A stretch of DNA of 64,000 bases from Alphaproteobacteria bacterium. GTDB lineage: Bacteria > Pseudomonadota > Alphaproteobacteria > Rs-D84. Numbering within the stretch: position 1 is the stretch's first letter; every line of letters starts with the position of its first letter. The position numbers and the translations under genes are program-made. The notes under the pieces are model-generated. The model worked only from the letters and a program-made list of their open reading frames with translations. It had not been told where the DNA came from and made no database searches. This document shows, one piece after another, positions 547 to 52,858 of the stretch. The stretch lies in contig WRHR01000005.1 in assembly GCA_009783145.1 (NCBI GenBank), forward strand, positions 194-64,193, read 5' to 3'.

Positions 547-575
547 TTGCTAAATGATTGAATACACTCTATAAT
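547..575 (+). promoter_or_regulatory. sigma70-like promoter TTGCTA-17-TATAAT
   Basis: -35 at 547-552, 17-nt spacer, -10 at 570-575; would transcribe the tRNA 3' fragment and the CDS at 658. Confidence 0.4.
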
Positions 576-590
576 TTACAAGGCGGTCAA

Positions 591-639
591 AAGACTTCTA
601 ATCCGTAGGTCAGAGGTTCGAATCATCTCGGGCATGCCA
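591..639 (+). pseudogene. tRNA-Arg(TCT)-like 3' fragment (anticodon loop to CCA)
   Basis: CTTCTAA-TCCGT-AGGTC-AGAGG-TTCGAAT-CATCT-CGGGCAT-G-CCA; T loop canonical, T stem has one mismatch; no D arm upstream. Confidence 0.4.
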
Positions 640-657
640 AAAAGTTAAGGAGAAATT

Positions 658-1293
658 ATGGCAACTGGAATCATATATATTTTGACTAATGATGCTATGT
701 CCGGAATCATTAAAATCGGTATAACTACTGACCTTGAACAAAGAATGAAGACTCTTGATACAACAGGAGTTCCAATGCCTTTCCGTTGCCATTATGCAGT
801 CGAAGTGGATGGTTATGAAAAGAAGGAAAAACACATTCACGACGGATTCTCGGACCACCGAATACGACCGAATAGGGAATTCTTCAAACTATCCCCTGAA
901 CGTGCGGTTTCAATCCTTAAAATGCTTGATGGGCGCGAAATTGTGTCCAACAACGCAATGATCGGAGAAACCGGTGAAATTGAAGAAAATGAAAAAATAG
1001 AAAAAGAAATTCGCCGGGACAAATTCACTTTCTCTTCTGCCGATGTTCCGATTGGCGCGGAAATCATATTTACACGTGATGAAACAAAAAAATGTGTCGT
1101 CGCCAGCGACCAACAGGTCGAATATGAGGGCCGCAGATATTCAATATCCCCAATAGCGCTCCGTTTTCTGAAAGAAGCCGGGTATAACTGGAAATCGGCG
1201 CAAGGCGCAGCATTTTTTACCTATGAAGGCGAATTGCTTGCCGACCGCAGAGATAGGGTTGAAACAGAAAACTCAGAATGTGAAATCGGATAG
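658..1293 (+). CDS. T5orf172 / GIY-YIG-superfamily domain protein with uncharacterised C-terminal domain
   Basis: AAGGAG RBS 7 nt upstream; N-terminus GIIYILTN...IKIGIT...R...L......E..IH..F...R....EFF matches the T5orf172 (MUG113-like) pattern. Confidence 0.7.
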   Translation: MATGIIYILTNDAMSGIIKIGITTDLEQRMKTLDTTGVPMPFRCHYAVEVDGYEKKEKHIHDGFSDHRIRPNREFFKLSPERAVSILKMLDGREIVSNNAMIGETGEIEENEKIEKEIRRDKFTFSSADVPIGAEIIFTRDETKKCVVASDQQVEYEGRRYSISPIALRFLKEAGYNWKSAQGAAFFTYEGELLADRRDRVETENSECEIG

Positions 1294-2570: not shown

Positions 2571-2592
2571 AAAGAAACCTCTCTTCAAAAAA

Positions 2593-3183
2593 TGTCAGAC
2601 GGGCCGTAAGCCGGATTCTGTTCTATGGCATAATTAATCTGTCGCGGCGGATTACTCCACCGGATCAAGCCCTCTACCCGCCCCCAACGCCAGGCGCGCT
2701 GGGGACCATGTGGAGAAAATATTGCGCGATTTGCGGCAGGGGATTTGAAGCAAGGACGAGGATTTTCGCGCAGACCGTATATTATACGGGCAAGCGGAAA
2801 TCCGAAGTTATTGATTCAAATACGCGCCGTCGCTTTGCGATGCAGCTAAAATCACCCATCGCTTTGTCAGATTGGCTCGATGTATAATATACATTTTCGC
2901 CAATCTTTCGCGCGCTGTGCGATTTTATCTCGCACAAATCGCGCAATATTTTCTCCACATGGCCCCTGGGGGCCTATTTGAAGTTGCACCACATAGAGAT
3001 TGCCCGTTTCACCCGCCTTCGCCAAGGCTACGGCGGGCAAGCCCGTCATGCCTTATTGAAGACGACTCCGTCTCTGTTGCTCTGATCGTCGGGTCGCCCC
3101 GCCGGGCCGTTAGCCCGTATGCTGCCTGGTGGTGTCCGGACTTTCCTCGCCATTTCTGGCGCTATGCCTCGCCCGTCTGACCG
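2593..3183 (-). ncRNA. rnpB: RNase P RNA (bacterial type A core) with large insertion
   Basis: Minus strand contains P4 5' strand GAGGAAAGTCCGGAC (about 3139-3153), P4 3' strand ACAGAATCCGGCTTA (about 2608-2622), P1 pairing GTCAGACGGGC/GCCCGTCTGAC (3171-3181 with 2594-2604), GCAACAGAGA, GGGTGAAAC, CAAATAGG and GGGTAGAGGGC blocks in canonical order. Confidence 0.85.
2706..2962. repeat. 257-nt insertion in rnpB bounded by 28-bp perfect inverted repeat
   Basis: 2706-2733 CCATGTGGAGAAAATATTGCGCGATTTG is the exact reverse complement of 2935-2962; interior holds AT-core palindromes CCGTATATTATACGG and ATGTATAATATACAT. Confidence 0.75.
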
Positions 3184-7014: not shown

Positions 7015-8778
7015 TTATACTCTGGCCCCGGCGTTGAAGCCTATGCGTTTGGAGATTCCTGCGGATTTGCGAGCTTTCAGCAATTCATCTATTTTATTCG
7101 TAGTGAATTCTGTCGCTGTATCTTCGCCGCCGCCCAGCAATAACTCGCGCCGCAGCATTGCAGTTATGGAGCGCTGTAATTCCCTGACGCCCTGCTCTGC
7201 TGTGTAGTTGCGGATGATATGACGCAGCGCTTCATCGTTGATTTTTATATTTTCCGCATTCCAGCCCGCGTCTTTTGCCGCGCGCTTTATTAAATGCTCG
7301 CGAGCAATATTCAATTTTTCCTCTTCCGAATATCCCGGAATTTCAATAATTTCCATTCTATCTTTTAATGCCGGAGACATATTCAGAGTATTCGCCGTTG
7401 CGATAAACACTACATTGCCCAGGTCAAAATCAACCTCCAAATAATGGTCGCGGAAGCTTTTATTCTGTTCCGGGTCCAGGACTTCCAACAGGGCGCTTTC
7501 CGGATCGCCGCGATGGTCACGGCCCATTTTATCAATCTCGTCCAACACAATCACCGGATTATTCGCGCCGCATCTTTTCAGCGCATCCATAATGCGTCCC
7601 GGCTGGGACCCGATATAAGTCTTGCGATGCCCGCGAAAGTGCGCTTCATCCGATACTCCGCCCAGTGAAATTCTATGATATTTGCGCCCCAGTGCCTTGG
7701 CCACGGATTTGCCGAGACTCGTCTTACCAACACCAGGCGCGCCAACCAAGCACAATATAGTGCCCGAGATATTTCCCGTTTTGCGCATCACCGCGATGTG
7801 TTCCAGAATTCTTTCTTTTATCGGCTGCATTCCGGAATGCTCGGCATCCAGCGCCACGCGTGCCGCGGTCAAATCAATTTTCGCCTTATCCGATTTATCC
7901 CATGGCATTGACAGCAGCTCGTCCAAATAAGTTTTCAACACCGCGCCTTCGGTGCTCATCGCGTTATGGCCGCGCATTCTGCGCCATTCGGACATTGCTT
8001 TGTCTTTCGCCTCTTTCGGCATTGCAGAATTTTCAATCCTGCGCTTTAAACTTTCCGTGTCCATTTCATCGCTGTCTTCGCCCAGCTCTTTCTGAATTGC
8101 TTTCAGCTTTTCCTGCAAGACTATATTGCGATGCCCGCCATCCATTTGCTGTTGCACGCGCTTGGAAATCGATGCGTCTATCTTCGCGATTTCCGCCATC
8201 ACTCCGATCTGTTCCAAAATCAGCACCAGCTTTTCGCGATATGTCCGCGCGCTCAGTATCCTAACCGCCGCCTCGGTCTCCATATTGGTCATCTGAATAA
8301 CGGCATCTATGAACGCCGGCATCGGATAGTTCTGGATTATCGCGTTCAGCTTGTCCATTCTGAACTTTCTCGGCAGCGCCAGAGCCGGCAATTCCGCTGC
8401 AACTTTGTCTCGCAGCGCGGCCGTTTGCTCGAAATTACTGTCATCTATAAAGGGCAGCTCGGCCGGAATACCTGAAAACAAGCCGTCCTCTACCGAAATA
8501 TCGGAAATCGAAACCGCCGCCTTAGTCTGGACTATCGTATGTATGGAGTTATCCGGAAGCCGCAATATCTGAATCACGTCCGCCAGGGTCCCGGTATCGT
8601 ACAGCTCTTCCGGCGCGACCGGATAGTTCCATTTGTGCTGAGGCGCGATTATCACGCGGCGGTTCGCGGCGACGGCCGCCTCCATACACGCGACGGAAAT
8701 CTGGTTATCAAGATAAATCGGAACGGTCAGGCCCGGCTGGACCACCAAATCCTTTAAGGGTAAAATGAATTCTTTCAT
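7015..8778 (-). CDS. Lon-like AAA+ ATPase (LON N-domain + AAA+ module, no S16 protease domain)
   Basis: N-terminal LPLKDLVVQPGLTVPIYL, Walker A GAPGVGKTS, Walker B VIVLDEIDK, Lon-type sensor region; ORF stops right after the AAA+ alpha-subdomain and abuts tsaB start with no gap. Confidence 0.8.
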   Translation of the reverse strand: MKEFILPLKDLVVQPGLTVPIYLDNQISVACMEAAVAANRRVIIAPQHKWNYPVAPEELYDTGTLADVIQILRLPDNSIHTIVQTKAAVSISDISVEDGLFSGIPAELPFIDDSNFEQTAALRDKVAAELPALALPRKFRMDKLNAIIQNYPMPAFIDAVIQMTNMETEAAVRILSARTYREKLVLILEQIGVMAEIAKIDASISKRVQQQMDGGHRNIVLQEKLKAIQKELGEDSDEMDTESLKRRIENSAMPKEAKDKAMSEWRRMRGHNAMSTEGAVLKTYLDELLSMPWDKSDKAKIDLTAARVALDAEHSGMQPIKERILEHIAVMRKTGNISGTILCLVGAPGVGKTSLGKSVAKALGRKYHRISLGGVSDEAHFRGHRKTYIGSQPGRIMDALKRCGANNPVIVLDEIDKMGRDHRGDPESALLEVLDPEQNKSFRDHYLEVDFDLGNVVFIATANTLNMSPALKDRMEIIEIPGYSEEEKLNIAREHLIKRAAKDAGWNAENIKINDEALRHIIRNYTAEQGVRELQRSITAMLRRELLLGGGEDTATEFTTNKIDELLKARKSAGISKRIGFNAGARV

Positions 8779-8823
8779 AGCAAGATATAATATAGAGTAT
8801 TTCTGGGAATAGTCAATAGTCAT

Positions 8824-9102: not shown

Positions 9103-9140
9103 CTTCTCATTCCTTTGTTATTGTTATACAATTTATAAGT

Positions 9141-9718
9141 GCCGGATTCTGGTGCCAGGCTCCGGCGGGCCCCGCATAAGCTAAGCGGGCGTTGCGACAA
9201 TTGCCGCGCGCGCCCTTGTGCCCTTAGGCAGCCAATGCAAGGCGAACATTGCTGTTCGCAGCGATTCTATCGCCATTCAGTTTTTTTCAGCCTTTTTCGG
9301 GAGCAACCCCGGACGCACTCTTTATCTTTCAGCCATTGTCGAGCCTGGTTCACCCCCATGCGCGGCTGCGCCGCGAGAGTGGCGCAAATGCTTCGCATTT
9401 GCTAGAGTAAAGATTCTTCGGCTGCGCCGAAAAATCAGAGTATTCGCTCGCTTCGCTCGCAGAGTAGGAGAGTAAGAGAGTAAAAGAGTAAAAGAGCATC
9501 TAAAACTCTACTACTCTCTTACTCTGCAAATGCGAAGCATTTGCGCTACTCTGCCGGCGAAGCCGGCGTCACTCTGCGCGCGAAGCGCGCGCTACTCTCA
9601 TCCACCATTTCCTATTGCGCCGCAGGCGCAATAGGAAATGGTGGAGGTGCCGGGTACCGCCCCCGGGTCCAAAAAGCCTATTGCATAAAGCATTCAGCAT
9701 CGTCTTCCCCGAAGGGAC
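9141..9718 (-). ncRNA. ssrA: two-piece (circularly permuted) tmRNA gene
   Basis: Acceptor piece ends ...GGACCCGGGGGCGGTACCCGGCACCTCCACCA (CCA at 9639). Coding piece starts GGGGGTGAACCAGGCTCGAC at 9357. GGGGGTG pairs 7/7 with CACCTCC including G3:U70. Tag frame GCT GCG AAC AGC AAT GTT CGC CTT GCA TTG GCT GCC TAA = AANSNVRLALAA. Confidence 0.8.
9358..9638. repeat. ~280-nt tmRNA intervening segment built of AGAGTANN octamers and GCGAAGC-centred mini-hairpins
   Basis: AGAGTAGG AGAGTAAG AGAGTAAA AGAGTAAA on one side and TACTCT units on the other, interspersed with GCAAATGC-GAAG-CATTTGC, GCCGGCGAAGCCGGC, GCGCGCGAAGCGCGCGC, CGCTCGCTTCGCTCGC. Confidence 0.75.
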
Positions 9719-9724
9719 TTACTA

Positions 9725-9752
9725 ATTATAAGGGAAATTTATGAAAAATCAA
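9725..9752 (-). promoter_or_regulatory. sigma70-like promoter TTGATT-16-TATAAT for ssrA
   Basis: Minus strand -35 at 9752-9747, -10 at 9730-9725; predicted start gives an acceptor piece of about 80 nt. Confidence 0.45.
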
Positions 9753-10051
9753 GCGCCTTGCTTTTTCGCCGCAGCCAATGCCGCGCGCAAGGATTTCTCG
9801 GCCAAAACCCGGATTTTCGGCGCAAATGCCCGCATATTCATCGCGTCTGCCACAGAATTCGCGAAAAGCTCTGCTATATAATTAACCTGAGTCGGCGCAA
9901 TCACGAAGACTTCACTGGAAATCTGTTCGGGCCGCAACTTCAATGCGCCCCCCTTCGCTGAAGCTATGGGGGGCAGGCCCGGGGTCGGCCTGTCCGCCGG
10001 AGCCTTGGCGTAGGCGGATTTTTTTATGATGTCTTCTATTGAATTTTCCAT
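9749..10051 (-). CDS. hypothetical protein containing two copies of the GC-hairpin insert
   Basis: 100-aa ORF divergent from secA; residues YAKAPADRPTPGLPPIASAKGG are encoded by hairpin copies at 9948-9973 and 9993-10018. Confidence 0.45.
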   Translation of the reverse strand: MENSIEDIIKKSAYAKAPADRPTPGLPPIASAKGGALKLRPEQISSEVFVIAPTQVNYIAELFANSVADAMNMRAFAPKIRVLAEKSLRAALAAAKKQGA

Positions 10052-12920: not shown

Positions 12921-15900
12921 TTCTATCGTAACTCTCACCCCAAGCGCGGAAAGGTCGTCCGCGATTGTTGGTGTCAGAGCCACAGCGCGGGGCAATGCCA
13001 ATGTCGTCGCCTTACCGTTCGCGCCAATGCTCAGAAATACCTTCGCCCTTCCGTTCGGCAGCGAATCTATCAATTGCTTTATATCCGCCAATCGCTCTTG
13101 CGCCTTCATCTCCAATGTAATTTTTTGCGCGACGGACGCTATCCACTGGGTCAATGGAATAACGCTGTCCACGAATAATGAAACTCTATCGTCGCGAACG
13201 TTTACCCTGCCCCGCAGCAAAACTATGCTCTCGTTCTGCAACACCTGCATAACGCCGTAAATCGTATCGCCGAAGCACACCGCGTCGACGCTGCCGGAAC
13301 TGTCCGCCGCATTGATGGACATCATTAATTTCCCCGTCTTGGTCGTGCGGCGGTTGAACGAGTTCACGCTGACCGCAATCATCACGTTTTCGCGGTCGCG
13401 CTTTGCGGGAAGCGTGGCGCTGGTCGTCAGCCTTTCTCGCTTTATCAGATTCTTGTACTGGTCCATCGGATGCGCCGAGATATAGAAGCCGACCGCGCTA
13501 AGCTCATTCTCCATTCTTTCGCCGAAGTTCCACGCCGGCGTCGCATTCATATTTTTTGCAAGTCTGTTTTCCGCTATGTCGTCCTGGGCGGTATTCGCGA
13601 ACAAGGAAAGAGAATTCGCGCTGTCTTTCTGCTTTGCCGCATAACCTAAAATCACGTCCGCGTTCATGAATATCTTCGCGCGGTTCGGCTCCAGCCCGTC
13701 CAGCGCGCCGACTTTCGCGAACGCTTCCAGCACTCGCTTGTTTATAATCCCTGCCGTGCGCTTCGCAAAATCCGTGATATTTTTGAACTTTCCATCAGCG
13801 TTTCGCTGGGCGATAATCGCGTCCGTCGCGACCTTGCCAATGCCCTTTATCGCGGCAAGCGCGAATATGATTTTATTGTCCCGCACCGTGAAAAGGCTTT
13901 CCGAAGAATTTATATCCGGCGGCAGAATTTCCAAACTAAAATTCGTTTTCGCGTCGTCCATATAAAGAGCTAGCTGGTCGGAATCATTCAGCTCCGACGA
14001 CATCGCCGCGGCCAGGAACTGGGCCGGATAATGAGCCTTAATATACGCGCATTGCGCCGCGATGACGGAATACGCGACCGAGTGCGATTTATTAAACGCG
14101 TATTCCGCGAACTTTATAAACTGAGTCCACAGAGCCTGGGCGTCGCCCAGCGACAAGGTTTTTTCCCGCTCGCACCCTTCGTAAAATTTCGGCTCCAGCT
14201 TGTCCAGCACTTCCTTGATTTTCTTGCCCATCGCCTTGCGGACGGTGTCGGATTCGCCCCGCGTGAATCCCGCCAGGGCGCGCACCAGCTGCATAACCTG
14301 CTCTTGATACACGATGATGCCGTATGTTTCTTTGAGTATTTCTTCCGCTTTTGGATGAGGATAGCTGACGTCTTCCTCGCCATGCATTCTGGCGATGTAT
14401 TGTGGAATGTACGCGATCGGCCCCGGGCGGTTCAAAGCGTTCAGCGCAACGATATTCGCAAAACTGGTGGGCTGCATCTTTTTCAAGGTCTGCTGAACGA
14501 ACGGGGCTTCGTATTGGAAAATTCCGATTGTCTTGCCGGCGCGCCACAGCTCGAAAGTCTTATCATCTTCCAGCGGAATCTTGTCCAGATCCAGATTCAC
14601 CCCAACCGTTTTCTTTACCAGCTCCACCGCGTATTTCAAAATAGCCAAGGTTTCCAAACCCAAAAAATCAAACTTTATCAGTCCCACGGATTCCAAATAA
14701 TGCCCGTCGAATTGACAAGACGGCATTTCGTTGGACGGGTCCCGATAAACCGGCGCGATCGCCGTCGTGGCGCGATCGCCGATAACCACTCCGCATGCGT
14801 GCTGGCCCAGATTGCGGAAGGCGCCTTCTATCTCCATCGATACATCTACGACTTTTTTAAGGTCGGCGTCGTTGTCCAGCGCTTCCTGAATATCATCAGA
14901 CTTTCGCACCGCGTCCGCGATTTTCTTCGCATCCATCGGTATCAATTTGGCGAATCTATCCGTCTTGGAATAAGGCATCCCGTAAACCCGCCCTATATCG
15001 CGTATCGCGCCGCGCGCCTGCAAGCTGCCGAAAGTGATAATCCTGCAAATATGGTCGGCGCCGTATCTCTTGCAAATATATTCCATCAGGCGCGGCAGGC
15101 CTTCGGGTTCGAAATCCACGTCAAAGTCCGGCATGGAAATTCGGTCTGGGTTTAAGAAACGCTCGAACAGCAAGCCATATGCCAGCGGATTCACATTCGT
15201 GATGCCCAGCGCCCACGAGACTACGCTGCCCGCGCCCGAACCGCGGCCCGGCCCCACCAGAACATCGTTCTTGCGGCACCAGCCTATGTAATCCGCGACT
15301 ATCAAGAAATACCCCGGAAAGCCCATCTTGATAATGACGTCACATTCAAATTCCAGTTGATCGAAGTATTGCTTTTGGTCGGCGTCCGGGATTTTTTCCT
15401 CGGCCATGCGCCGGTCCAGTCCAGCGCGCGCGTCATCGCGCAGCATCTGGCACTCGGCATCCAGATCATCGCCAAATTTGGGCAGCAAAGGCTTTGACCG
15501 AGTATTCACCATAAACGCGCAGCGGCGTGAAATCGCAACCGTGTTTTCAATCGCTTCGGGCAGGTCGCTGAAGATTTCCGCCATTTCATCGGGCGATTTG
15601 AAGTATTGCTCGGCATTTTTGCGCTTGCGGTCGGGATCTATGACCTTGGTCTGCTGCAGGACGCAACCCAGCGCGTCCGCCGCCTCATAATTATCTTGCG
15701 CCGCGAAGCACGCGTCGTTAGTCGCGACAATCGGAATGTTCATGCTTTGCGCCAGGCGCAGGAATTCGGGCTCCGTCTTGATTTCTTCTTCCAGGCCATG
15801 GCGCTGGATTTCCATATAAAACCGCCCTTCGCCAAGGCTACGGGCGGCAGGGCCGCCGCCGAAAATCTCCAGCAGGCGGCGCGCCAGCATTGAAGCAAAA

Positions 15901-18059: not shown

Positions 18060-20660
18060 TTACTTTATGAAACATTGACCAGTAGAAGCCACCCAAGTTC
18101 CCCCCGGCAGTATCTTGCAAGCTTCTTGCGCATAGCTGCTGTCCAATATGCATCTTGTGCCCGAAGGATCCATATGCGCCAAACCTTGGCCGCCCACTAT
18201 CTCGTCCGCTATCTGGCACGAAACCATAACGGTATTAACCACGCACAGCCCCCAGCCGATAGACCTGTCCGTAGTTCCGCCGGACTGCGGTGAATCTGTC
18301 GCCCTGGCCGCATATTGAACCGACAAATCCTGCGCCGCGCGCGCGGCATTCGCCGGCGTCACGGCCCCGCGAGCCGCCACCGCGCCATATATTGGCTTAT
18401 TCACCATCGCCGCCCTTTCCGCAGCCTGGACGGCCATCGCCTCGTATTTATCCAGCCTTGCGACGCTTGCCCCTGTCTCCATCAGACCGGCGGCCCAAAG
18501 GCTTACCGTTTCTTTCAGCTTCGCCAAACCGCCATAGACTTGGCCGGCGAATACGGGCTCTATCTCCAACTTCCTGCTCTTGCTTTTGTTCGCGAGTTCC
18601 TGCGCGCTGTCCGGATGCATAATCCACACGCCGTTCAAATCATTGCATATATTCTGCAGCTGGTCGCCCAGCTCGGCCCGCAGGCTGTCCATAGCCTTTG
18701 TAACCGCGCTGATCGTGGCCGGATCCAAAGTCGCATCCGGATCGCCCAGGCAGAATGTTTTCGCATACGTCTGCAGGTTCGCTTCCAGCTTTCCCGGCGA
18801 AATCAGGCGGCAGCCGTACGGCACGCTGTTTTCCGAATCTCCGGACGCCGGCGCGCATATTTCTTCTATATAGCTTTCCAGCGCCGCGTCGCAGCCCTCG
18901 GCTATTCTGACCGTATCCACCGTGCTGACGAACGCCAGCAGCTCCTTCAAGCCGCACAGATTCGTCGCGGCGTCGCTGCTGCGCAGATTTCCGATAGTAT
19001 TCGAATCAACCTTTTTGCAGTTCATGTCGTTCGGGTTCGCGTACAAGTTCGCGCAAGCCGCAACCTTGTCCGCGCACATAGCGCGCGTTGCTCGCGCCCC
19101 GACCGCTCCGCTGCGCTGCGACGTGGTGTCATCGAAGTCCTTCAACTGGCCGCCGATCGTGTCATAACATTCCTTCATCGTCGTAACGCAGGTCATCTTG
19201 ATTTCTTCCAGCTTTCTGTCCTGGGCTTGGGCGATTTCTATCAAAGCCTGGCGCTTGAAGGCGTCCCAGACCGCGTTCGCGTCGTCTCGGCAGCTGTCCA
19301 AGGACTCCCGCGCGCGGTTCCTGAACGCATCCAGCCCGTTAAGAAAAGCCTTGTTCTCCGGCGCGTTCGGGTTCTCCAGCTTTATCTGGTTCGCCAGATT
19401 GAACAAAAGCGGGGAATAAATCGGCTCGCCCGTTGTCTGGTTGATATACAATCCCGTAAAGTCAAGGCATCTTTTGAAGTTCGGGCCGCAAGCGTATTCA
19501 TGCAATATATCCGCCTGCACTTTGCCTATGCACTCGTTAACGCTGGCCGAGTTATGCGTGCGGTACTCCTCTAATCTCGCGTCACGCAGCATTTTGTTCG
19601 CCTCGCGCACTTTCTGAGCGACCTGCTCTTTCATTCCGTCGATTTTCTTGGAATACGCCTGGCAGTCCTGGCTGATTACCAGACCATAAGCGCTGCGCAC
19701 CATCTGCAATGTCGCCGCATTCTCGCATTGTGCCTGCGCCATCGATGAGCATTGCCTGTCCACTTCGTCATACAGCGCCTTTCCTTCCAACGCCGTCAAA
19801 TCCTTGCCGCGCCCGCCGCCGCCGAACATATCGTCGCTGCCGCCGCCCCAAATATCATCTATCGCGCTGCCGAAATTCATCAAGTTGCTGAAATCCAATC
19901 TGGTCGGCTGCTGCGCCTGCGACGGCTTTTTCTTGCCGCTTAATAAGTCCCCGATTTCATCCAGCATTTTCGCCGCCGCGGACTTGTCCGTCCGCATCGC
20001 TGCCTCGCCCGCTGTGGCCGTCTGCATCGCGCCGACCTCGGCCGCCGTCAGGTTCACGGCCTCCAAATTATTATCGGCAAAGCTTTGCAGCATTGTTTTC
20101 GCTTGATCCAGCGCCGCTTCCATATCGCCGAAATCGCGGAATTTCTCCGAGCATATGCAGCGCCGGTACGTATCGTTCGCCGCCGCGCAGAACTGGTCCA
20201 TGCATGTATTATAAGCCTCGCGGCAATTGTTATATCCCGTGCCCAGCTTCGACAAGTCCCCGAATACCGCCGTCGCCGCCCTGGCCGGCGTTGCGGAGCG
20301 CGATACGCTTGCGCTGCGCGCAGACGACGCGGCAACCGGCGCCGTTGCCGAACGCGCGGCGACCGCGGACCTCGATTGCTGCGGCGGCGCAATTGCCGGA
20401 GTTCTGGCGCCGACCGTTGCAGAACGCGAAACCGTTCTTGTCGCCGCCGTCCGATTCGTAATTTCCGGCGCAGTTTTTTCCGCGCGCGGAGTCTGCGGCG
20501 CGGCGCGAACGCCGCGCGGGTTAGGCGCCCCCGCGCCGTAAGCAAAAGGCGCGCCAAGCACAAAACACAGGGCACCCGCCTTCGCTAGCAACCCTATGAA
20601 CTTCGTACTACGGACGATAGAGGCTACGGCGGGCAAGCAAGACACGGATAATTTCTTCAT
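18060..20660 (-). CDS. large secreted protein, Ala/Arg/Ser-rich N-region and Cys-containing body
   Basis: 866-aa ORF 13 nt upstream of the Cys-rich gene on the same strand; hydrophobic N-terminal segment GALCFVLGAPFAYG; no motif recognised. Confidence 0.6.
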   Translation of the reverse strand: MKKLSVSCLPAVASIVRSTKFIGLLAKAGALCFVLGAPFAYGAGAPNPRGVRAAPQTPRAEKTAPEITNRTAATRTVSRSATVGARTPAIAPPQQSRSAVAARSATAPVAASSARSASVSRSATPARAATAVFGDLSKLGTGYNNCREAYNTCMDQFCAAANDTYRRCICSEKFRDFGDMEAALDQAKTMLQSFADNNLEAVNLTAAEVGAMQTATAGEAAMRTDKSAAAKMLDEIGDLLSGKKKPSQAQQPTRLDFSNLMNFGSAIDDIWGGGSDDMFGGGGRGKDLTALEGKALYDEVDRQCSSMAQAQCENAATLQMVRSAYGLVISQDCQAYSKKIDGMKEQVAQKVREANKMLRDARLEEYRTHNSASVNECIGKVQADILHEYACGPNFKRCLDFTGLYINQTTGEPIYSPLLFNLANQIKLENPNAPENKAFLNGLDAFRNRARESLDSCRDDANAVWDAFKRQALIEIAQAQDRKLEEIKMTCVTTMKECYDTIGGQLKDFDDTTSQRSGAVGARATRAMCADKVAACANLYANPNDMNCKKVDSNTIGNLRSSDAATNLCGLKELLAFVSTVDTVRIAEGCDAALESYIEEICAPASGDSENSVPYGCRLISPGKLEANLQTYAKTFCLGDPDATLDPATISAVTKAMDSLRAELGDQLQNICNDLNGVWIMHPDSAQELANKSKSRKLEIEPVFAGQVYGGLAKLKETVSLWAAGLMETGASVARLDKYEAMAVQAAERAAMVNKPIYGAVAARGAVTPANAARAAQDLSVQYAARATDSPQSGGTTDRSIGWGLCVVNTVMVSCQIADEIVGGQGLAHMDPSGTRCILDSSYAQEACKILPGGTWVASTGQCFIK

Positions 20661-28140: not shown

Positions 28141-28234
28141 CGCTCCTCGCAATGACAATCAAGAGTATGTTCGGGGCACACAACCTAAAACAAATACCGA
28201 ATTGTCATTGCGAGGCGAAGCCGAAGCAATCCAG
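28121..28234. repeat. palindromic repeat family D, full copy
   Basis: Left arm CTGGATTGCTTCGTCGCTAACGCTCCTCGCAATGACAAT, right arm ATTGTCATTGCGAGGCGAAGCCGAAGCAATCCAG; right arm is the exact reverse complement of 42213-42246; left arm encodes the last residues and stop of holB. Confidence 0.75.
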
Positions 28235-28255
28235 TAAATAAAGAGATAAAGAGAA

Positions 28256-29029
28256 ATGTTCATAGATACACATTGCCACCTTACGAACAGATACATCCCC
28301 CTTTGCCAAGGCTCCGGGGGACAAGCGAAGAACGCGGACGAAGTAATTGCGCGCGCGGCCGCATCCGGCGTCGGAGCGCTGATTTGCGCTTGCGCGGAAC
28401 CGGGCGACTTTGAGTCCGCAATCGCGTTGGCTGAGAAGCACAAGAATGTTTTCGCGACAATCGGCATTCATCCCGACACTGCGGGGAAAGCAACGCCCGA
28501 TTACGGATATCTGTTGTCACACCCGAAAGTAGTCGGTGTCGGGGAAATCGGCCTTGATTATCACTACAACGCGGAAAATAAAAATCAGCAGATCGAATTA
28601 TTCCGCGCGCAATTGGAAATCGCCCGCTGCGCGAACCTGCCGATTGCCGTGCATTCCCGCGATGTCGAGGAAGATATCGCCGCGGCCCTGGACGGCTCGG
28701 TCGGCGGCGTCATGCACTGCTTTACGGGCAGTTGGGATTTTGCAGCAAAGATGCTGGACCAAGGCTTTTACTTTTCCGCCAGCGGAATAATTACTTTCAA
28801 AAACTCCAATGAATTGCGTGAAGTTTTCGCAAAAATTCCGCTGGACCGGATTGTTATTGAAACCGATGCGCCTTGGTGCGCGCCCGTTCCCTTTCGCGGA
28901 AAGCCTTGCGAGCCGGCAATGGTTGCCCAGACCGCGCGCGTCTTGGCCGAAACCCGGGGCTTGAATTTGCCGGAATTGGAGATTATATTAGAAGAGAATA
29001 CAAAACGGCTATACCCTAAATTAAAATGA
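28256..29029 (+). CDS. tatD: TatD family metal-dependent DNase/hydrolase
   Basis: FIDTHCHL, GEIGLDYHY, HSRD, HCFTG, ETDAPW motifs. Confidence 0.9.
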   Translation: MFIDTHCHLTNRYIPLCQGSGGQAKNADEVIARAAASGVGALICACAEPGDFESAIALAEKHKNVFATIGIHPDTAGKATPDYGYLLSHPKVVGVGEIGLDYHYNAENKNQQIELFRAQLEIARCANLPIAVHSRDVEEDIAAALDGSVGGVMHCFTGSWDFAAKMLDQGFYFSASGIITFKNSNELREVFAKIPLDRIVIETDAPWCAPVPFRGKPCEPAMVAQTARVLAETRGLNLPELEIILEENTKRLYPKLK

Positions 29030-31970: not shown

Positions 31971-33473
31971 TTATTTCATCATCGGGAACAGGATTGTGTC
32001 GCGAAGGGTTGGCTGGTCGAAGATTATGCTTGCCAGGCGATCTACGCCGACCCCAACGCCCGAAATCGGCGGAAAGCCATGCTCCATCGCCCTTACGAAA
32101 TCATTATCCGGATTGAACGCTTCTTCCGCTCCTGCCGCTATATCCTTCGCCTGTTCCTCGAACGCCGCAAGCTGTTGTGTCGGATTTACCAGCTCGGAAT
32201 AACCCTTGCACATTTCCGCTCCGCTGGCCAGCAATTGAAACATATCTATTCTGCGTTCATCTTCGTCATTTCTGCGCGCCAGAGGCACCATATACGCCGG
32301 ATAGTTATACATAAACGTTGGCTGAATCAAGTCCGGACGGATTTTCTTTTTATAAACAAAATCCACTATCTCCGGGATGGATACGTAAGGCTCCAGCTCG
32401 TCGCGCGAGAACATCTTCCGGCTCAGCAGTTGCGAGCGCAATTTTTCCGCGTCGTCAAAGTCCAAGATATTGCACCCGAACAGCTCGTTCATTTTCGCCG
32501 TATAATCCAACTTTTCATAAGACGAAAAATCAAGCCTCAATCCCTGGTATTCAATCTGCAGAGTTCCGCGCAATGATTGAATCAGGTGCTGCACCAGCGC
32601 CCAGGTGAATTTTATATTATCGTTGAAATCCCAATACGCCGCATACCATTCCACCATCGTGAATTCCTGCAGATGCATCGCATCCATGCCTTCGTTGCGG
32701 AAATCCTTTGCAACCTCGAACACCCTGTCAAAGCCCGCGCCAATCGCCACCTTTAGCGGAAGCTCCGGCGAAATGCGAAGCTGAAAATCGGTATCCAGCG
32801 CGTTATGGTGCGTCGTAAAGGGGCGCGCCGCCGCGCCGCTGGCCACGTTCTGCAACACCGGCGTTTCGATTTCCATAAAGCCGTGCTTCCACATAAACTC
32901 GCGCCACAAGCGCGTCATTTGAAAGCGCCCCACAATCGCATCGCGCGATTCCTTGTTCGCAATCATGTCCAGATATCGCTGGCGATAGCGCGTTTCCGTG
33001 TCAGACAGCCCGTGAAACTTTTCCGGCAATGGACGCAGCGCCTTGGCCAAAATTTCATACCGCGAGACTTTGATTGTTAATTCTCCGGCGGTGGTGTGAT
33101 AAAGCTCGCCTTCTATACCGATAAAATCACCCATATCAACATTGGCTTTCATAAATTTGTACTGCTCTTCGCCCAGCTCTTCCCGCGACATTGAAAACTG
33201 GATTTCCCCGTCAATGTCATAAATCCGGCCAAACATCAATTTTCCCAGCCAGCGAAGCGCCGTTACGCGGCCCGGCACGCGAACTTTCGCCCCCCCCTTC
33301 GCCAAGGCTTCGGGGGGCAGGCCGTCTGCCAAAGCACGGGTCTCGGCGATTGTGCCTGTGCGTTCGTATCTGTCTTTCCAGACGACGCCGTCGCGCGCGC
33401 GGATGTTCTCCGCTTTCTGCAGGCGCGCTTCCAGCTCGTTAGTTGAAATCTGTGTGTTCGTCTGGTCTGACAT
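31971..33473 (-). CDS. lysS: lysyl-tRNA synthetase, class II
   Basis: OB-fold N-domain, class II motifs (FMEIETPVL, FRNEG, GVGVGVDRL). Confidence 0.95.
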   Translation of the reverse strand: MSDQTNTQISTNELEARLQKAENIRARDGVVWKDRYERTGTIAETRALADGLPPEALAKGGAKVRVPGRVTALRWLGKLMFGRIYDIDGEIQFSMSREELGEEQYKFMKANVDMGDFIGIEGELYHTTAGELTIKVSRYEILAKALRPLPEKFHGLSDTETRYRQRYLDMIANKESRDAIVGRFQMTRLWREFMWKHGFMEIETPVLQNVASGAAARPFTTHHNALDTDFQLRISPELPLKVAIGAGFDRVFEVAKDFRNEGMDAMHLQEFTMVEWYAAYWDFNDNIKFTWALVQHLIQSLRGTLQIEYQGLRLDFSSYEKLDYTAKMNELFGCNILDFDDAEKLRSQLLSRKMFSRDELEPYVSIPEIVDFVYKKKIRPDLIQPTFMYNYPAYMVPLARRNDEDERRIDMFQLLASGAEMCKGYSELVNPTQQLAAFEEQAKDIAAGAEEAFNPDNDFVRAMEHGFPPISGVGVGVDRLASIIFDQPTLRDTILFPMMK

Positions 33474-33611
33474 TATTTTTCCTTTTTATTAAAAACGGGC
33501 ACCAAAAGCGCCCGCAGAGTTTCTTCCTACGTGGCGCAGTTTAACTAAATTTTTTCGTTTGCCCCGACATAGCGTGTATTATGACTAATTTTTTAGAAAA
33601 GTCCAGCATTT

Positions 33612-34535
33612 TTATATTTTATCCGGCAATTTCAGCATTTCGCCCAGTTTAAAGTCCCATTCTTCCGGATGAAATTTCAGCAATCCGCTGCCGGGCGTGA
33701 AAGTCAATTCTCCGATTTTCAGCCCCGTTTTCAGCTTTATGATATTGATGCGCACCAGCGGGAACGGCTCGGCCAATTTTTTGCACAGTTCCAGCATTTC
33801 CTTGAATTCTTTGGGCTTTTTAATGTCGCCCGTAGAACGCCCCATATTTTTCTTGAAAGGCATCCGCTTGAAATTCAAATCAAACTCGTCCGATATATGA
33901 CGACCCTGTTCATCAAACCCGCGCAGCATTATCCATACGGGCTTTCCGTTAAAGCAAAAGAATTCGTACTCGGTGCCGCCCTTATCCATTTCCGGAATAT
34001 ACTTTTCGCATATTATCCGCGGCACGATATTCTTGTACCCCCATTCGAACCCGCGGAAATAGATATTTGCGGCCGGCCGCGTCCATTTCCTCAGTTTTTC
34101 GCGCGCCTTTGCAACATCCAAGTCCTTCTTTGACCGGCAGATTATATTCTGTTTGCAGCCCCAATTGACCTTTAGCACGAATTGTTCGGGCAGCTTATCA
34201 AAGTCTATCTCGTCCGCGCTGCGATATACGCCGATAAGATCGACTAGATACTGCGGGCCGACCGCGTCGGCGATATATTCCCTTGCGCGGTACTTGTCCG
34301 CGCACAAAGTAATCAAAGAATCATGATAGTAAAATTTCAGCCACTGGATTTTCTCGCTGTACGAACGCGGATTATCCAAATTCAAATCATATCCGTGCGC
34401 GCGGCGAAATCTATAGCCCAGGATGAATCTTATGTCCTTTTCGGGCAAGTTTTCATCGATGCGGCGCGCCCGCAGCCGAATATATTTTATAAAATCCGAC
34501 AAGCGGCGCAAAAACGAGGGCTTTTTGATTTGCAT
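33612..34535 (-). CDS. TupA-like ATP-grasp family protein
   Basis: KVNWGCKQNIIC, EYEFFCFNGKP, INIIKLKTGLKIGELTFTPGSG resemble the TupA-like ATP-grasp pattern; start 34535 or 34571. Confidence 0.55.
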   Translation of the reverse strand: MQIKKPSFLRRLSDFIKYIRLRARRIDENLPEKDIRFILGYRFRRAHGYDLNLDNPRSYSEKIQWLKFYYHDSLITLCADKYRAREYIADAVGPQYLVDLIGVYRSADEIDFDKLPEQFVLKVNWGCKQNIICRSKKDLDVAKAREKLRKWTRPAANIYFRGFEWGYKNIVPRIICEKYIPEMDKGGTEYEFFCFNGKPVWIMLRGFDEQGRHISDEFDLNFKRMPFKKNMGRSTGDIKKPKEFKEMLELCKKLAEPFPLVRINIIKLKTGLKIGELTFTPGSGLLKFHPEEWDFKLGEMLKLPDKI

Positions 34536-34672
34536 TGCAACTATTCCTATATTCCGCTCAATTAATAACATTAAAATTGCAAGGTAGCAAGGGTAAAGAA
34601 TTTGTACATTTGGCGAGTTTATTTAAAAAATACTTGCAATCGGCAAAAAACTGTGCAAAAATCCCAACCTGT

Positions 34673-34749
34673 GCGAGCGTAGCTCAGTTGGCTAGAGCGC
34701 AACCTTGCCAAGGTTGAGGTCGAGGGTTCGAGCCCCTTTGCTCGCACCA
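34673..34749 (+). tRNA. tRNA-Gly(GCC)
   Basis: GCGAGCG-TA-GCTC-AGTTGGCTA-GAGC-G-CAACC-TTGCCAA-GGTTG-AGGTC-GAGGG-TTCGAGC-CCCTT-TGCTCGC-A-CCA. Confidence 0.9.
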
Positions 34750-34880
34750 CACTTCGCGTCTGTGACGCTTCGTGTGGCTTCGCCACGCGAAATGCGGAGC
34801 AGCGAAGTCCAACGAAGCCTTGGCGAAGTTGGATGAACGCGAAGTAGTGCCACCCGTAGCCTTGGCGTAGGGTGGCGGAG
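34745..34880. repeat. tRNA-3'-flank repeat, copy 1 (with extra GC-hairpin module)
   Basis: CACCACACTTCGCGTCTGTGACGCTTCGTGTGG..CCACGCGAAATGCGGAGCAG..AACGCGAAGTAGTG..GCCTTGGCG; first 57 nt differ at only a few positions from 53508-53564. Confidence 0.8.
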
Positions 34881-34981: not shown

Positions 34982-37555
34982 ATGTCGGCAAATCTGACCC
35001 AAAATTTTTCCAATTCCGATTCCGCCTTCGCCAAGGCTCCGGCGGACAAGACGCAGCGCAGCGAAGCCGCATTTGCGGCCGCGGTGCGCGACCTGTTGCT
35101 GTTCGGCGGCAGCACCAATCTATTTTCAGATCCCGGGAACCTGGTTTTGAACCTGCCCTATCGCTTTTTCGCGTACACCGCTCCCGCTTGGGCAAAAAAA
35201 GGCTTTTTCGACTTCCATTTTCCATTCCGCTTTTCAAAAGACGGCCCCTCGGAGTTCCTGGACGTTTTCTTCAACACTTTGCACAAAAAGCTGGAAGCCG
35301 TAAAAACGAACAGATTAAAAGCCGTATCTTTAAAAAACGACGCTTGGGAATTCGACGCCGTGTTGAAACTGCTCGCGCCGGAACTGGAATTCGCGGACCC
35401 TTCCGAGAAGCTGGACTTTCTAAAAAACCAATGCAGCCTTAAAGACGAGGGCCACGTTCAATTTGAAGACCAACAAATCTTTCTCTCGCGTTATGCGATG
35501 ATGCTGGTGGCGATAAATATCTCGGCCAGAAAAAACATGTCCAAGGCATTCCAGGACGATTTGAACTCCCCATTGTTCTCAGACGGAAACGACCCGGACG
35601 CCATGCAAAAATCAAAGGCCGACTTCGAATCCGAAATGCGCTTGAGATTCGCTTATTATTACTTCGCGCGTTCCGACATCAACAATGCCGATACGAAAAC
35701 GATCGTCGCCGAGATTTGGAATCATATTCGCGGAAAGCAGCTTAAGGAAGCATACGAATCCGCTATGGCAAAACTGGATTTTACGGCGAAGGCGTTATTA
35801 AGCCCCGAAGACAACAAGAAATTCTTCGGGTTGCTGGGAAAATTCAAGCTGGAATACATTTTCGACATCTTGTTTTCCAAGCGAAAGGGCGATTTCAAGA
35901 CGGAATTCGAAGACGCTTTGAACGACGCGGGCTATGTATTCGAACGGGGCAAATGGCGCAAAGGCAAAGACACGGCGGCGCAATATCCGGGCGGTACATT
36001 CTCGCCGCATATCGGATTTTTCCTTTGCCGGTGCATAAACGCATTCTGCGAATTCATCGAGCAGGAAAAAGAAAACTGTCCCGAAGACAATCGGCAGGAA
36101 TGGCTTGAATCGCTGGCGAAAAACTTCTTCACCGCGGTTCGAAACGAGTATGGCAAAGCGGATAAGGGCGTGGACTTCATCGCCGCGCCGAAATTCGTAA
36201 ACCAGCATCATAAAAACGCGCGCAAGCAAGCGGACGCGGCAGAGGCCGGCTCGGGGCGGACAATCGTCGATAAACTCAGCGGCGAAACGACGCGCGAATC
36301 CCCTGGTTTCATAGACTTGTGCAAATGGCAGACATTGTTCAGCAAAGACACCGAAGCCTGCCTGAATTACAGAAAAGGCGACGAGCGGACATTGGAAAAA
36401 CTGCACGCCCAATTCGCCGCCAATCCTTGTCAAGAAACAGCGGATGAAATCTATGAGGCGGAAAAGGACCTTATAGAACTAAATATGTCGATCTATGGGT
36501 GCAACTGCAACGCGTGGATAAGGATTCCTATGCTGGGACGCGACGGCAAGCCTGTGCCGCGTCCACTGATCGGCGACAAAAAACCCGTCAGAATCGAAAG
36601 TTTTCCGGAACCTGTCAAAAACACTCAGACGACCCTCTTCCCGTTTGTCGTTCCGTATGACATCGATGTCGGCCAAATAGAACTGCCAAATGAACCATTT
36701 GAAAAAATACTTGCCGATTTGCCGGAAATACATTATTCCACGGCAGAAAAATTCCACCGCTTCAAGAAAACGGAAAACGGCTGGCCGCGCATCAAGGACG
36801 GGAACTATGAATGCATCAACGAATTCCTGCATGAAGAATATAATCCGGAAACTTGGACGACTATGGACGGAAAACCGTCGAACACCGGACGCACAAGAAA
36901 GAACTGCAAGCTGAAATACTTTTTATTCGAATGGGATCATCTGGACCCGAAGGAGCAATATAAAAAACTTTTGGCATACGAAAAATATATCGAACGCGCG
37001 GTATGGTCGGCTGGGGAAAATGGTTCCATACATATCAAAATCAAAGCGCTGTATGAACCCATAGTTCTGGAAGAATATGATTGGTTGCGCAGGCATATGC
37101 TTATCAAATTTGGATTCTTTGACAGCGACCCGAATACAAAAGACAACAGCCGCTGCACGCGAGTGCCGAATGCGACAAGCCCAAATACCGGCAAGCCGCA
37201 GAAGTTATTGCATTACAATCCGGACGCATGTTTTTCCGAGAACTGGCGGCCGCTGTTTATGGCCGAAAGAAAAGAAGCCGAAAGGCAGAAAGCATTGGCA
37301 GCGCAACACAAAGCGTCCATGCTATATTATACCGCCGACTCGAACGACAAGTGGCGGAACTATTGGATTGACAGGACGAAAGAAGCGCGCGCAATGCTGA
37401 CGGAAGGAAACCGCACGGCCGCGCTTCCCAAGATAATCAATACCAGTGCAAGCAGCGTTCTCAGCGAGCAAGACTTTATTGATTTGCTAGGCGACCTATT
37501 GGAAAAAGACAATATCAATTATTTAAAAACTTTGTACAAGGCCAACACGCATTAA
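34982..37555 (+). CDS. large hypothetical protein with C-terminal AEP (primase-polymerase)-like motif set
   Basis: 857 aa; YFLFEWD (E650-x-D652), SAGENGSIHIKIK (S682-I-H684), FFDSD and RCTRVPNATSPNTGKPQ (from R724) in the order expected for AEP motifs I-III; N-terminal 600 aa unrecognised. Confidence 0.6.
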   Translation: MSANLTQNFSNSDSAFAKAPADKTQRSEAAFAAAVRDLLLFGGSTNLFSDPGNLVLNLPYRFFAYTAPAWAKKGFFDFHFPFRFSKDGPSEFLDVFFNTLHKKLEAVKTNRLKAVSLKNDAWEFDAVLKLLAPELEFADPSEKLDFLKNQCSLKDEGHVQFEDQQIFLSRYAMMLVAINISARKNMSKAFQDDLNSPLFSDGNDPDAMQKSKADFESEMRLRFAYYYFARSDINNADTKTIVAEIWNHIRGKQLKEAYESAMAKLDFTAKALLSPEDNKKFFGLLGKFKLEYIFDILFSKRKGDFKTEFEDALNDAGYVFERGKWRKGKDTAAQYPGGTFSPHIGFFLCRCINAFCEFIEQEKENCPEDNRQEWLESLAKNFFTAVRNEYGKADKGVDFIAAPKFVNQHHKNARKQADAAEAGSGRTIVDKLSGETTRESPGFIDLCKWQTLFSKDTEACLNYRKGDERTLEKLHAQFAANPCQETADEIYEAEKDLIELNMSIYGCNCNAWIRIPMLGRDGKPVPRPLIGDKKPVRIESFPEPVKNTQTTLFPFVVPYDIDVGQIELPNEPFEKILADLPEIHYSTAEKFHRFKKTENGWPRIKDGNYECINEFLHEEYNPETWTTMDGKPSNTGRTRKNCKLKYFLFEWDHLDPKEQYKKLLAYEKYIERAVWSAGENGSIHIKIKALYEPIVLEEYDWLRRHMLIKFGFFDSDPNTKDNSRCTRVPNATSPNTGKPQKLLHYNPDACFSENWRPLFMAERKEAERQKALAAQHKASMLYYTADSNDKWRNYWIDRTKEARAMLTEGNRTAALPKIINTSASSVLSEQDFIDLLGDLLEKDNINYLKTLYKANTH

Positions 37556-37581: not shown

Positions 37582-40645
<3,064 letters not shown>

Positions 40646-42155: not shown

Positions 42156-42286
42156 AATGACTAATGACCAATGACTAATTAATGGGTTCGCTTTCGCTCA
42201 CAAGTTCATCGACTGGATTGCTTCGGCTTCGCCTCGCAATGACAATTTAGCGTGGATTGGTAATTAGTCATTGGTCATTAGTCATT
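42156..42286. repeat. heptamer-arm hairpin H5 (AATGACT/AATGACC units) carrying a family D half-element as core
   Basis: 42156-42181 is the exact reverse complement of 42261-42286 (26 bp); interior 42213-42246 equals the family D arm. Confidence 0.8.
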
Positions 42287-52459: not shown

Positions 52460-52858
52460 ATGCCAATGAAAAAAACAACTAAAAAAACCGTCCACGCTAA
52501 AGCTCCGGCGGGCAAGGCGCCTGTGGCGGCAACGATGCCGGCCGCGCCAACCTGCGGATGCGGATGCCACGGCGGGCATTTCTGGAAAAAGCTGATAATC
52601 CTGATTATCGTTTTCGCGGCGGGCTTCGCGGTATGCAAATGCACCTGCCACCACAAGGGCTTTGAGGGCAAGCGCATGAATAAAGCCACGTTCGTGGACG
52701 GCTGTCTGGACTTGTCCAAAATAAACCGCCCGGCGATGGTTGAAAAAATGCTTCAGGCGGATCTGGACGGCGACGGCTGCATCACCAAGGAAGAACTGAA
52801 AGTCTTCTGGAAGGAAAAGCGCGGCATGGCCGATTCTGACACGGAAATCGAAGAATAA
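52460..52858 (+). CDS. membrane-anchored protein with one EF-hand-like loop
   Basis: DLDGDGCITKEEL matches the EF-hand calcium loop; CGCGCHGGH and CKCTCHH Cys/His clusters flank a TM helix. Confidence 0.55.
   Translation: MPMKKTTKKTVHAKAPAGKAPVAATMPAAPTCGCGCHGGHFWKKLIILIIVFAAGFAVCKCTCHHKGFEGKRMNKATFVDGCLDLSKINRPAMVEKMLQADLDGDGCITKEELKVFWKEKRGMADSDTEIEE

Follow-up and report, generated by a model that had tools for sequence, protein, structure and literature searches.

Repetitive extragenic palindromic sequences (REPs) are 20-40 nt long, extragenic and species-specific, carry a GTAG tail and are paired with an HUH Y1 transposase, the REP-associated tyrosine transposase (RAYT). The mitochondrial byp elements are bypassed by the ribosome, while among the GIY-YIG endonucleases of phage T4, the gene of SegB lies in the tRNA cluster and I-TevI acts as its own repressor via an operator resembling its target. 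Rickettsia palindromic elements (RPEs) enter RNA genes as well. They have been reported from Rickettsia as palindromic repeats of ~150 bp in ten families, inserted in-frame in housekeeping protein genes and altering their products (PMC10969869). For the GC clusters of yeast mitochondria (GC42) a putative AG target duplication has been described; their mechanism is given as unknown, and organelle endonucleases have been proposed as helpers (PMC4478555). RPEs, REPs and mitochondrial GC clusters are the closest known kinds to the element described here, a GC-rich hairpin of 30 nt (hereafter the unit) that recurs in a 64,000-nt stretch of contig WRHR01000005.1 (assembly GCA_009783145.1, positions 194 to 64,193; hereafter the window) and that has entered dnaE, lysS, queA and a gene of the TatD/YchF family (tatD) in frame. 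The window comes from an alphaproteobacterium. It has a GC content near 50% and a permuted two-piece transfer-messenger RNA (tmRNA) gene, and its closest relatives are metagenome-assembled genomes labelled Alphaproteobacteria or Rickettsiales.

The consensus of the unit is (T/C)CCNCC-TTCGCCAAGGCT-NC-GGNGG-RCARG, with a near-constant centre TTCGCCAAGGCT and arms that vary between copies with compensation (arm pairs in the window: CCGCC/GGCGG, CCCCC/GGGGG, CCAAC/GTTGG, CACCC/GGGTG, CGCCC/GGGCG). The copy in dnaE, for instance, reads CCGCCC-TTCGCCAAGGCTAC-GGGCGG-CAGG on the plus strand (Table 1). On the GAA strand a 4-nt tail, CYTG, is followed by a 26-nt hairpin: an outer stem of 6 bp, then a symmetric internal loop (GWA/GWA), an inner stem of 2 bp and, at the tip, CUUG. 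The predicted fold of the unit agrees with this structure; the fold z-scores alone (-0.05 to -2.3) are unconvincing, and the case for the structure rests on covariation (see below). The 12-mer core TTCGCCAAGGCT is found in 7 exact copies and, at up to 2 mismatches, in 17 copies, a number never reached in shuffled sequences (mean 7.9). Scanning with the 29-nt consensus (up to 9 mismatches) yields ~13 copies in 64 kb versus 0.05 per shuffle, namely those at positions 3013, 9949, 9989, 15823, 28297, 33293, 34804, 34846, 35022, 40231, 52488 and 53578, to which an expanded variant at 20576-20632 was added. A structural scan (outer stem-GWA-hairpin-GWA-stem) reported 8-9 matches in the window versus 0-1 in shuffles. 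At least 8 of the ~13 copies lie inside open reading frames (ORFs), and the hosts named by NCBIfam are DnaE, a TatD/YchF-family hydrolase, LysRS and QueA. With Rfam covariance models, whether cut at gathering or at E-value thresholds, the units had no match in the window and none in 20 of the GIY-YIG loci introduced below, and no description of the unit was found in Rfam or in the open-access literature searched by sequence, by peptide and by GIY-YIG/COG2827/YhbQ.

Comparison with relatives at 60-85% protein identity demonstrates that dnaE, lysS, queA and tatD have gained whole 30-nt units after the split from these relatives. The segment GGPAARSLGE of DnaE (16 sequences aligned), the 10-residue segment of QueA (28 sequences) and IPLCQGSGGQ of TatD (12 sequences) are present only in the window sequence, and LPPEALAKGG of LysRS is absent from a syntenic relative, a 21-kb contig (L121) with 72-84% nucleotide identity to the window over the aligned segments. 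At the nucleotide level, exactly 30 nt of queA and of lysS are missing in L121, and exactly 30 nt of dnaE in another relative (L286). The junctions in queA and lysS show no target duplication, no more than 1 nt of ambiguity and no common motif in the flanks, while that in dnaE is not exactly placeable, its flanks having diverged; at the 857-aa ORF the N-terminus of the relative is shorter and too divergent for placement of the junction. Alignment with solved structures revealed gaps of 10 residues (Thermus) and 6 residues (E. coli) for DnaE, 9 residues for QueA and 6-9 residues for TatD. For LysRS it revealed none, which was misleading at first, as the clean 30-nt insertion is seen against the close relative. 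L121 has no copy of the unit in its 21 kb and the corresponding part of the window has seven, hence the expansion is later than that split. We regard the recent insertion of a mobile, translated unit as highly probable. The idea that the stems are P nucleotides derived from the target flanks was rejected, as the stems do not match the flanks at queA and lysS.

The preservation of the host genes is explained by the unit itself. Its length of 30 nt keeps the reading frame and, as the sequence itself shows, none of the six frames contains a stop, apart from one TAG in the GCTACGG variant; thus a gene that receives it remains unbroken and gains a 10-residue segment rich in Ala, Gly, Lys and Pro. 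Of the six frames, the window copies use four (..ALAK.. and ..AFAKAPADK.. three times each, ..SLGE.. and ..CQGSGGQ.. once each). The two Arg/Pro-rich frames are never used by the window copies, and this avoidance suggests selection on the peptide. Six of the eight coding copies are within the first 60 residues and the rest between conserved blocks; in the AlphaFold model of QueA, which is of low confidence (mean predicted local distance difference test score 61), the insert is a coil between strand 120-126 and helix 137-147. In other genomes ~26% of the copies lie in long open frames versus 61% of random positions, and in viral contigs 54% versus 63%. With copies rarer in open frames than random positions are, coding insertion is selected against, yet it is general.

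An earlier note on this DNA had described a module of ~28 nt, inserted as segments of 9-11 aa into dnaE, lysS, queA, tatD and the 857-aa gene in at least three frames and both orientations without breaking the ORFs. Recurrence of the module elsewhere, on which the note had staked its claim beforehand, proved to be far above chance by the counts given above, and the segments are indeed insertions and not native sequence, being absent from distant orthologues of solved structure and from the closer relatives (in LysRS from the latter only). The use of several frames and both orientations with intact ORFs also held, with the number of frames now corrected to four. The length was revised to 30 nt, as measured in the queA, lysS and dnaE alignments, and that of the segments to 10 residues each. 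The spread of the unit over phyla and phage contigs and its place in the hairpin family of the mini GIY-YIG genes, both described below, were beyond the view of the note, and they make the context more unusual than it could tell.

The hairpin is not lineage-specific: many bacterial phyla have it, and so do phage contigs. The search pattern CCTTCGCCAAGGCTNCGGNGG, with 20 fixed bases and ~1 chance match expected in 596 Gb, has exact matches in at least 120 genome stretches; those listed include Verrucomicrobiota, Acidobacteriota, Patescibacteria, Bacteroidota, Planctomycetota, Kiritimatiellia, Nitrospirota, Armatimonadota, Elusimicrobiota and Alphaproteobacteria, with isolates of Bradyrhizobium, Niastella, Brevifollis, Cerasicoccus and Aquisalinus among them. 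Matching complete genomes include OZ245814.1, OZ245751.1, OY969415.1, OY820905.2 and NZ_CP120691.1. Among the IMG/VR viral contigs 82 stretches match the pattern. In PLSDB 18 records gave weak partial matches to the 30-mer, none of them full-length at high identity, and this near-absence rules out classical plasmids as the carrier. In 121 copies from other genomes the information content is limited to 30 positions with sharp edges, and positions outside the search pattern are conserved only within this 30-nt frame. The middle pair of the stem is Watson-Crick in 76% of 211 copies versus 34% expected (chi-square p 1e-57), and the sixth pair is T:A in 106 copies and C:G in 66, i.e. in 172 of the 211 (p 1e-72). 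The conservation beyond the pattern, the sharp edges and the covariation of the stem indicate that the matches are homologous and not due to chance. Nested or merged units were seen both elsewhere (locus L062) and in the window (20576-20632), and in Bradyrhizobium and others units are situated at the tips of longer genome-specific palindromes. The flanks of the 121 copies have no conserved target tetranucleotide.

Clustering of the ORFs around ~200 unit loci revealed no recurrent transposase, integrase or reverse transcriptase neighbour; the sole recurrent neighbour is a ~80-residue GIY-YIG protein (Pfam PF01541) that comprises the catalytic domain only, without a DNA-binding domain. At these loci the start codon of the mini GIY-YIG gene follows the unit by 5-15 nt, and a tRNA gene is located further upstream. 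The mini GIY-YIG family has at least 524 relatives in metagenomes, and we took 80 of its loci from metagenomes independently of the unit. The exact unit core was found upstream, in the sense of the gene, at 18 of 74 such loci versus ~0.4 expected, and downstream at 2-3 of 73; the architecture outer GC stem-G(A/U/G)A-inner hairpin-G(A/U/G)A-outer stem was found upstream at 55 of 74 and downstream at 6 of 73. The inner helix of these leaders differs between loci in sequence as well as in length (C(CUUG)G, CCC-GNA-GGG, UCGC-GAA-GCGA and others), the distance from their 3' arm, GGAGG/GGCGG, to the start codon is 5-15 nt, and at 45 of 60 loci a tRNA or tmRNA gene lies 100-250 nt upstream on the same strand. 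In front of many leaders stands GGCUG(C/U)C, a match to the tail of the solo units (CYTG; in the leaders also written CTGY), in the same register in 17 of 45 and, as judged by eye, one base offset in the others. The unit of the window is thus the C(CUUG)G member of the leader family, and a common origin of the unit and the GIY-YIG leader hairpins is likely. The tRNA-Gly and tRNA-Thr trailers of the window show a series of hairpins as in the GIY-YIG cassettes and are cassettes minus the ORF. No copy in the window has the complete arrangement by which we define a cassette (tRNA or tmRNA upstream and GIY-YIG ORF 5-60 nt downstream), and the copies in coding sequences are solo units.

Two other sets of GIY-YIG genes were considered and set aside. 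Loci L232 and L278 come from the same metagenome as L121, but not from the organism of the window. The only GIY-YIG-clan gene of the window (658-1293) belongs to a family (T5orf172) different from, and only weakly similar to, the mini GIY-YIG proteins (hhalign probability 19%). It encodes a 211-aa T5orf172/MUG113 protein, is located within a stretch of low GC content (1-2000, 43.5% GC) and starts ~18 nt after an apparent tRNA 3' fragment ending in ...GGTTCGAATCATCTCGGGCATGCCA, recognized by eye (window 575-1293); ARAGORN called no tRNA at this putative fragment. The region 575-1293 looks like the edge of an integrated element, and it echoes the tRNA-then-GIY-YIG layout.

Our preferred explanation, to which we give about an even chance, is that the unit is a REP-like miniature, non-autonomous mobile hairpin derived from the tRNA-hairpin-GIY-YIG cassette and perhaps moved by its nuclease. 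The cassette would be a source that spreads horizontally and brings the hairpin from one phylum to another, and the solo units would be copies that left it and entered their sites as DNA, most likely in the form of single-stranded hairpins. The cutting might be done by the GIY-YIG nuclease or by another structure-specific enzyme of the host, and the ends might be sealed by host repair or ligation. That the GIY-YIG protein itself is the mobilising enzyme seems to us possible but doubtful, and equally tentative is the idea of a pan-bacterial system in which a catalytic-domain-only GIY-YIG protein, encoded behind tRNA or tmRNA genes, recognizes and mobilises a 30-nt GWA/GWA hairpin. Such a system, if real, would be a nuclease-plus-hairpin partnership analogous to RAYT/REP on another enzyme fold, and its unit, being 30 nt long and stop-free, would give essential proteins 10-residue loops and RNase P RNA new helix tips, in phages as well as across phyla. 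To our knowledge, 30 nt would rank it among the smallest mobile DNA units described.

Several observations weigh against this explanation. The association with GIY-YIG is positional and correlational, and the tRNA trailers and the leaders could be no more than places where an insertion is safe. The GIY-YIG gene is present at only 6 of ~200 unit loci, neither the window nor L121 has a gene of the mini family, and viral contigs, in which solo units are common, have few (3 loci). The stems differ, with compensation, in each copy of the window, an odd feature if they are recent copies of one master. We know of no GIY-YIG enzyme that forms covalent intermediates of the transposase type. Eight of the nine solo copies in the window carry the GAA strand on the minus strand, irrespective of the strand of the host gene, and the GC skew of the whole window is negative on the plus strand; a replication-strand bias is nevertheless not relied on, since at 178 loci elsewhere the orientation is unrelated to the local GC skew (80 versus 98, p 0.2).

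Among the alternatives, the one that survives best considers the units to be REPs moved by an HUH Y1 transposase (RAYT or IS200/IS605-like) acting on single-stranded hairpins, with an incidental link to GIY-YIG; we judge it unlikely. The anatomy of the unit, a short conserved 5' tail followed by an imperfect palindrome, fits that of REPs, although the tail is CYTG and not GTAG. Insertion without target duplication in queA and lysS, the resemblance of the inverted doublet at 9948-10018 to a REPIN (a REP doublet forming a hairpin) and the position of units at the tips of genome-specific palindromes agree with it as well, while the lack of a conserved target tetranucleotide beside the units does not. 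REP families are normally species-specific and extragenic, whereas the unit spans phyla and enters genes. Finally, no Y1 transposase was detected among 40 scanned proteins of the window or among the recurrent ORF families of the 200 unit loci.

The unit could instead be a structured RNA kept by selection, i.e. a signal for processing or stability or a translational operator, its identity across phyla reflecting a conserved binding partner. The strong covariation of the stem, the conserved purine-rich GWA/GWA loop together with a variable inner helix, and the 3' arm of the leaders at the distance of 5-15 nt from the GIY-YIG start codon all speak for a functional RNA. The predicted fold is consistent with it too, but the fold z-scores are just -1 to -2.3 and there is no matching Rfam family. 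The GAA strand is transcribed in helix P12 of rnpB, in both tRNA trailers and in dnaE, lysS and queA, but in tatD, the 857-aa ORF and ORF 52460 it is the TTC strand, and copies inside coding sequences would be unfolded by ribosomes. A function also leaves unexplained why the unit was inserted into unrelated essential genes of one lineage only. We therefore find RNA-level selection as the whole explanation rather unlikely; a function in leaders and selfish behaviour of solo copies can both be true.

Copying mediated by RNA or templated by repair is quite improbable in our opinion. In this scheme abundant hairpin RNA from tRNA-trailer transcripts, or its cDNA, would be taken up where the DNA is broken or gapped, with no dedicated nuclease involved. 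A comparable proposal has been made for the yeast mitochondrial GC clusters (PMC4478555), the units in trailers are co-transcribed with tRNA or tmRNA, and both a target duplication and a target motif are lacking. However, the edges of the units are very sharp, unlike those expected from random capture, and no reverse transcriptase is found in the window or as a recurrent neighbour of the unit loci. Very improbable is the view that the units are not translated at all, because ribosomes bypass them as they do the mitochondrial byp elements or the gap in T4 gene 60: apart from the analogy with bypassed short GC-rich inserts and the glycine codons beside some units, the data disagree with it, as all verified inserts are exactly 30 nt long, in frame and without a stop in the frame used, queA has no matching take-off and landing codons, and the avoidance of the Arg/Pro-rich frames suggests selection at the peptide level. 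Native low-complexity sequence or chance similarity in place of insertion is scarcely credible and found no support when tested, the gapless alignment of LysRS with solved structures notwithstanding, as close relatives lack the segments in DnaE, LysRS, QueA and TatD, near-identical DNA recurs in unrelated genes across frames and strands, and shuffles contain ~0.05 copies.

Table 1. Copies of the unit and repeat features in the window (positions in window numbering).
Feature	Position	Strand	Description
Unit in dnaE	15822-15851	+ (gene minus)	read GGPAARSLGE(G), PHP domain, between IFG and RFYMEIQRHG
Unit in lysS	33291-33320	+ (gene minus)	read LPPEALAKGG, between N-terminal helix and anticodon-binding domain
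Unit in queA	40230-40259	+ (gene minus)	10 residues; junction ambiguity 1 nt
Unit in TatD/YchF-family gene	28296-28325	+ (gene plus)	read IPLCQGSGGQ, directly after HCHL metal site
Consensus copy in N-terminus of 857-aa ORF	35021-35050	+ (ORF plus)	10 residues, frame ..AFAKAPADK..
Sister-loop copy (CGCTAAAGCT)	52488-52516	+	N-terminus of plus-strand ORF 52460-52858, read TVHAKAPAGK
Inverted doublet, ~11 nt apart	9948-10018	9948-9977 forward; 9989-10018 reverse	loop CGCTGAAGCT in the forward copy
Host of inverted doublet (100-aa ORF)	9749-10051	minus	read SAYAKAPADR...LPPIASAKGG
Unit as tip of RNase P RNA helix P12	3012-3041	+	rnpB 2591-3180 minus; GAA strand in RNA
tRNA-Gly(GCC) trailer	34748-34875	+	sister hairpin 34748-34776, then units 34804-34833 and 34846-34875; GAA strand in tRNA sense
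tRNA-Thr(UGU) trailer	53511-53607	+	sister hairpin 53511-53539, unit 53578-53607; layout as in tRNA-Gly trailer
Expanded variant CCGCC-GTA-[41-nt inner part]-GAA-GGCGG	20576-20632	-	signal-peptide region of 866-aa ORF
Inverted tandem arrays	51183-51308/51378-51448; 24395-24438/24585-24629; 42151-42179/42263-42292; 29506-29572/48975-49020; 63758-63877

The copies that the earlier note had reported in rnpB and in both tRNA flanks could be located in the tip of P12 and in the trailers, and its two copies in ORF 9749-10051 turned out to be the inverted doublet. The copy at 52488 lies in the plus-strand ORF of Table 1. That in the signal region of the 866-aa gene is present, but it is the expanded variant with its 41-nt inner part. 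The sister hairpin of the tRNA-Gly trailer, CACAC-TTC-GCGTC..GACGC-TTC-GTGTG, belongs to repeat family D14, and no GIY-YIG ORF follows this trailer.

The RNase P RNA has 590 nt versus 367 positions in the model and contains, besides the unit in P12, an insertion of ~230-275 nt bounded by 32-nt inverted repeats (2702-2733/2935-2966, 97% complementary), which could be an extra long helix or an insert resembling a MITE (a transposable element of the miniature inverted-repeat type). Relative to L121, tRNA-Gly is inverted, and ~1,060 bp of the window region 33556-34749, with a gene for a TupA-like ATP-grasp protein (33612-34571, minus strand), is missing in L121. Relatives of QueA and TatD carry other short insertions elsewhere, e.g. 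NQFPSGRGVARSAGVSFFRV in P0002, and some QueA homologues of 490-540 aa contain endonuclease domains of the DUF559 (PF04480)/MTES_1575 (PF18741) type (the region examined includes L121 10001-11047). In-frame invasion of housekeeping genes seems to be common in this clade.

Other repeats are plentiful in the window. The two-piece tmRNA gene (9138-9756, minus strand) spans 619 nt versus 355 positions in the model, and its intervening region is a long imperfect palindrome of GCTTCGC/GCGAAGC mini-hairpins with 8-nt tandem repeats of the AGAGTA type. Several intergenic regions have, on either side, inverted arrays of tandem repeats of 7-8 nt (AGGTAGG, TAATGAC, ATTTACG, AATTAAC; Table 1), and in other phyla the 30-nt unit itself is flanked by short tandem arrays of a similar sort (e.g. 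L002, L010, L026, L055, L113, L117). A 62-nt GC-rich repeat containing CCCCGCCCCTTCGGGGCACCCCTCCACAGGAGGGG is present at 55432-55493 and 59751-59812, and a 43-nt inverted pair containing GTCATTGCGAGGCGAAGCCGAAGCAATCC at 28200-28242 and 42205-42247; motifs like those in these repeats probably occur widely in other bacteria. A Lon-like ORF (7015-8823, minus strand, 602 aa) has the N-terminal substrate domain, the AAA module and the lid, but no Pfam match to the protease domain, and may be truncated or split.

If our interpretation is right, in-frame selfish palindromes in essential genes are not confined to Rickettsia, but would be what shows of a tiny hairpin family that extends across phyla. 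The unit would then be a concrete source of short lineage-specific loops in conserved proteins and of additional helices in the RNase P RNA and in tRNA trailers, and presumably it may also explain the recurrent ..EALAKEG.. and ..SFGGQ.. motifs in hypothetical proteins of metagenome assemblies. It would serve as a marker of recent insertions and be a source of alignment artefacts. A widespread, uncharacterised family of small GIY-YIG proteins would acquire a possible role, and the 80-residue nuclease and the 30-nt hairpin form a testable pair.

As in the T4 Seg and I-TevI systems, a small GIY-YIG gene occupies an intergenic slot beside tRNA genes, and the autoregulation of I-TevI would parallel a leader hairpin that overlaps the ribosome-binding site. 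Unlike those enzymes, the ~80-residue protein is a catalytic domain alone, and homing depends on homology in the flanks, absent for solo units at unrelated sites. Byp elements differ from the units in that the latter are in frame and free of stops. MITEs differ in that the units have no target-site duplication (queA, lysS) and no insertion sequence or transposase neighbour at their loci. With the GC clusters the units share 30-50 bp GC-rich hairpins in an AT-richer genome, constraint on the stem, merging and nesting, and horizontal transfer (PMC4478555), as well as an endonuclease as the suspected helper; the clusters, however, are confined to fungal mitochondria, and the unit has no counterpart of their target duplication. 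The similarity to REPs and REPINs extends to the size class, the conserved 5' tetranucleotide with an imperfect GC-rich hairpin, occasional inverted doublets, the lack of target duplication and, as with RAYT, a nuclease-type gene associated with the hairpin. In contrast to REPs, the unit enters coding sequences, keeps one sequence across phyla, has a CYTG tail, and the only associated gene found is that of the GIY-YIG protein behind a tRNA. The parallel with RPEs drawn by the earlier note holds for the in-frame behaviour, in an alphaproteobacterial lineage, within unrelated housekeeping genes (dnaE, lysS, queA, tatD and three further ORFs) and in P12 of rnpB, and likewise for the difference in size, as three DNA and four protein alignments give 30 nt and 10 aa for the unit versus ~150 bp (PMC10969869) and a peptide of tens of residues for RPEs. 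It does not extend to the build, which is unrelated, or to the distribution, since the presence of the unit in many phyla argues against a family restricted to Rickettsia; the unit also occurs in phage contigs and is tied to the GIY-YIG cassette.

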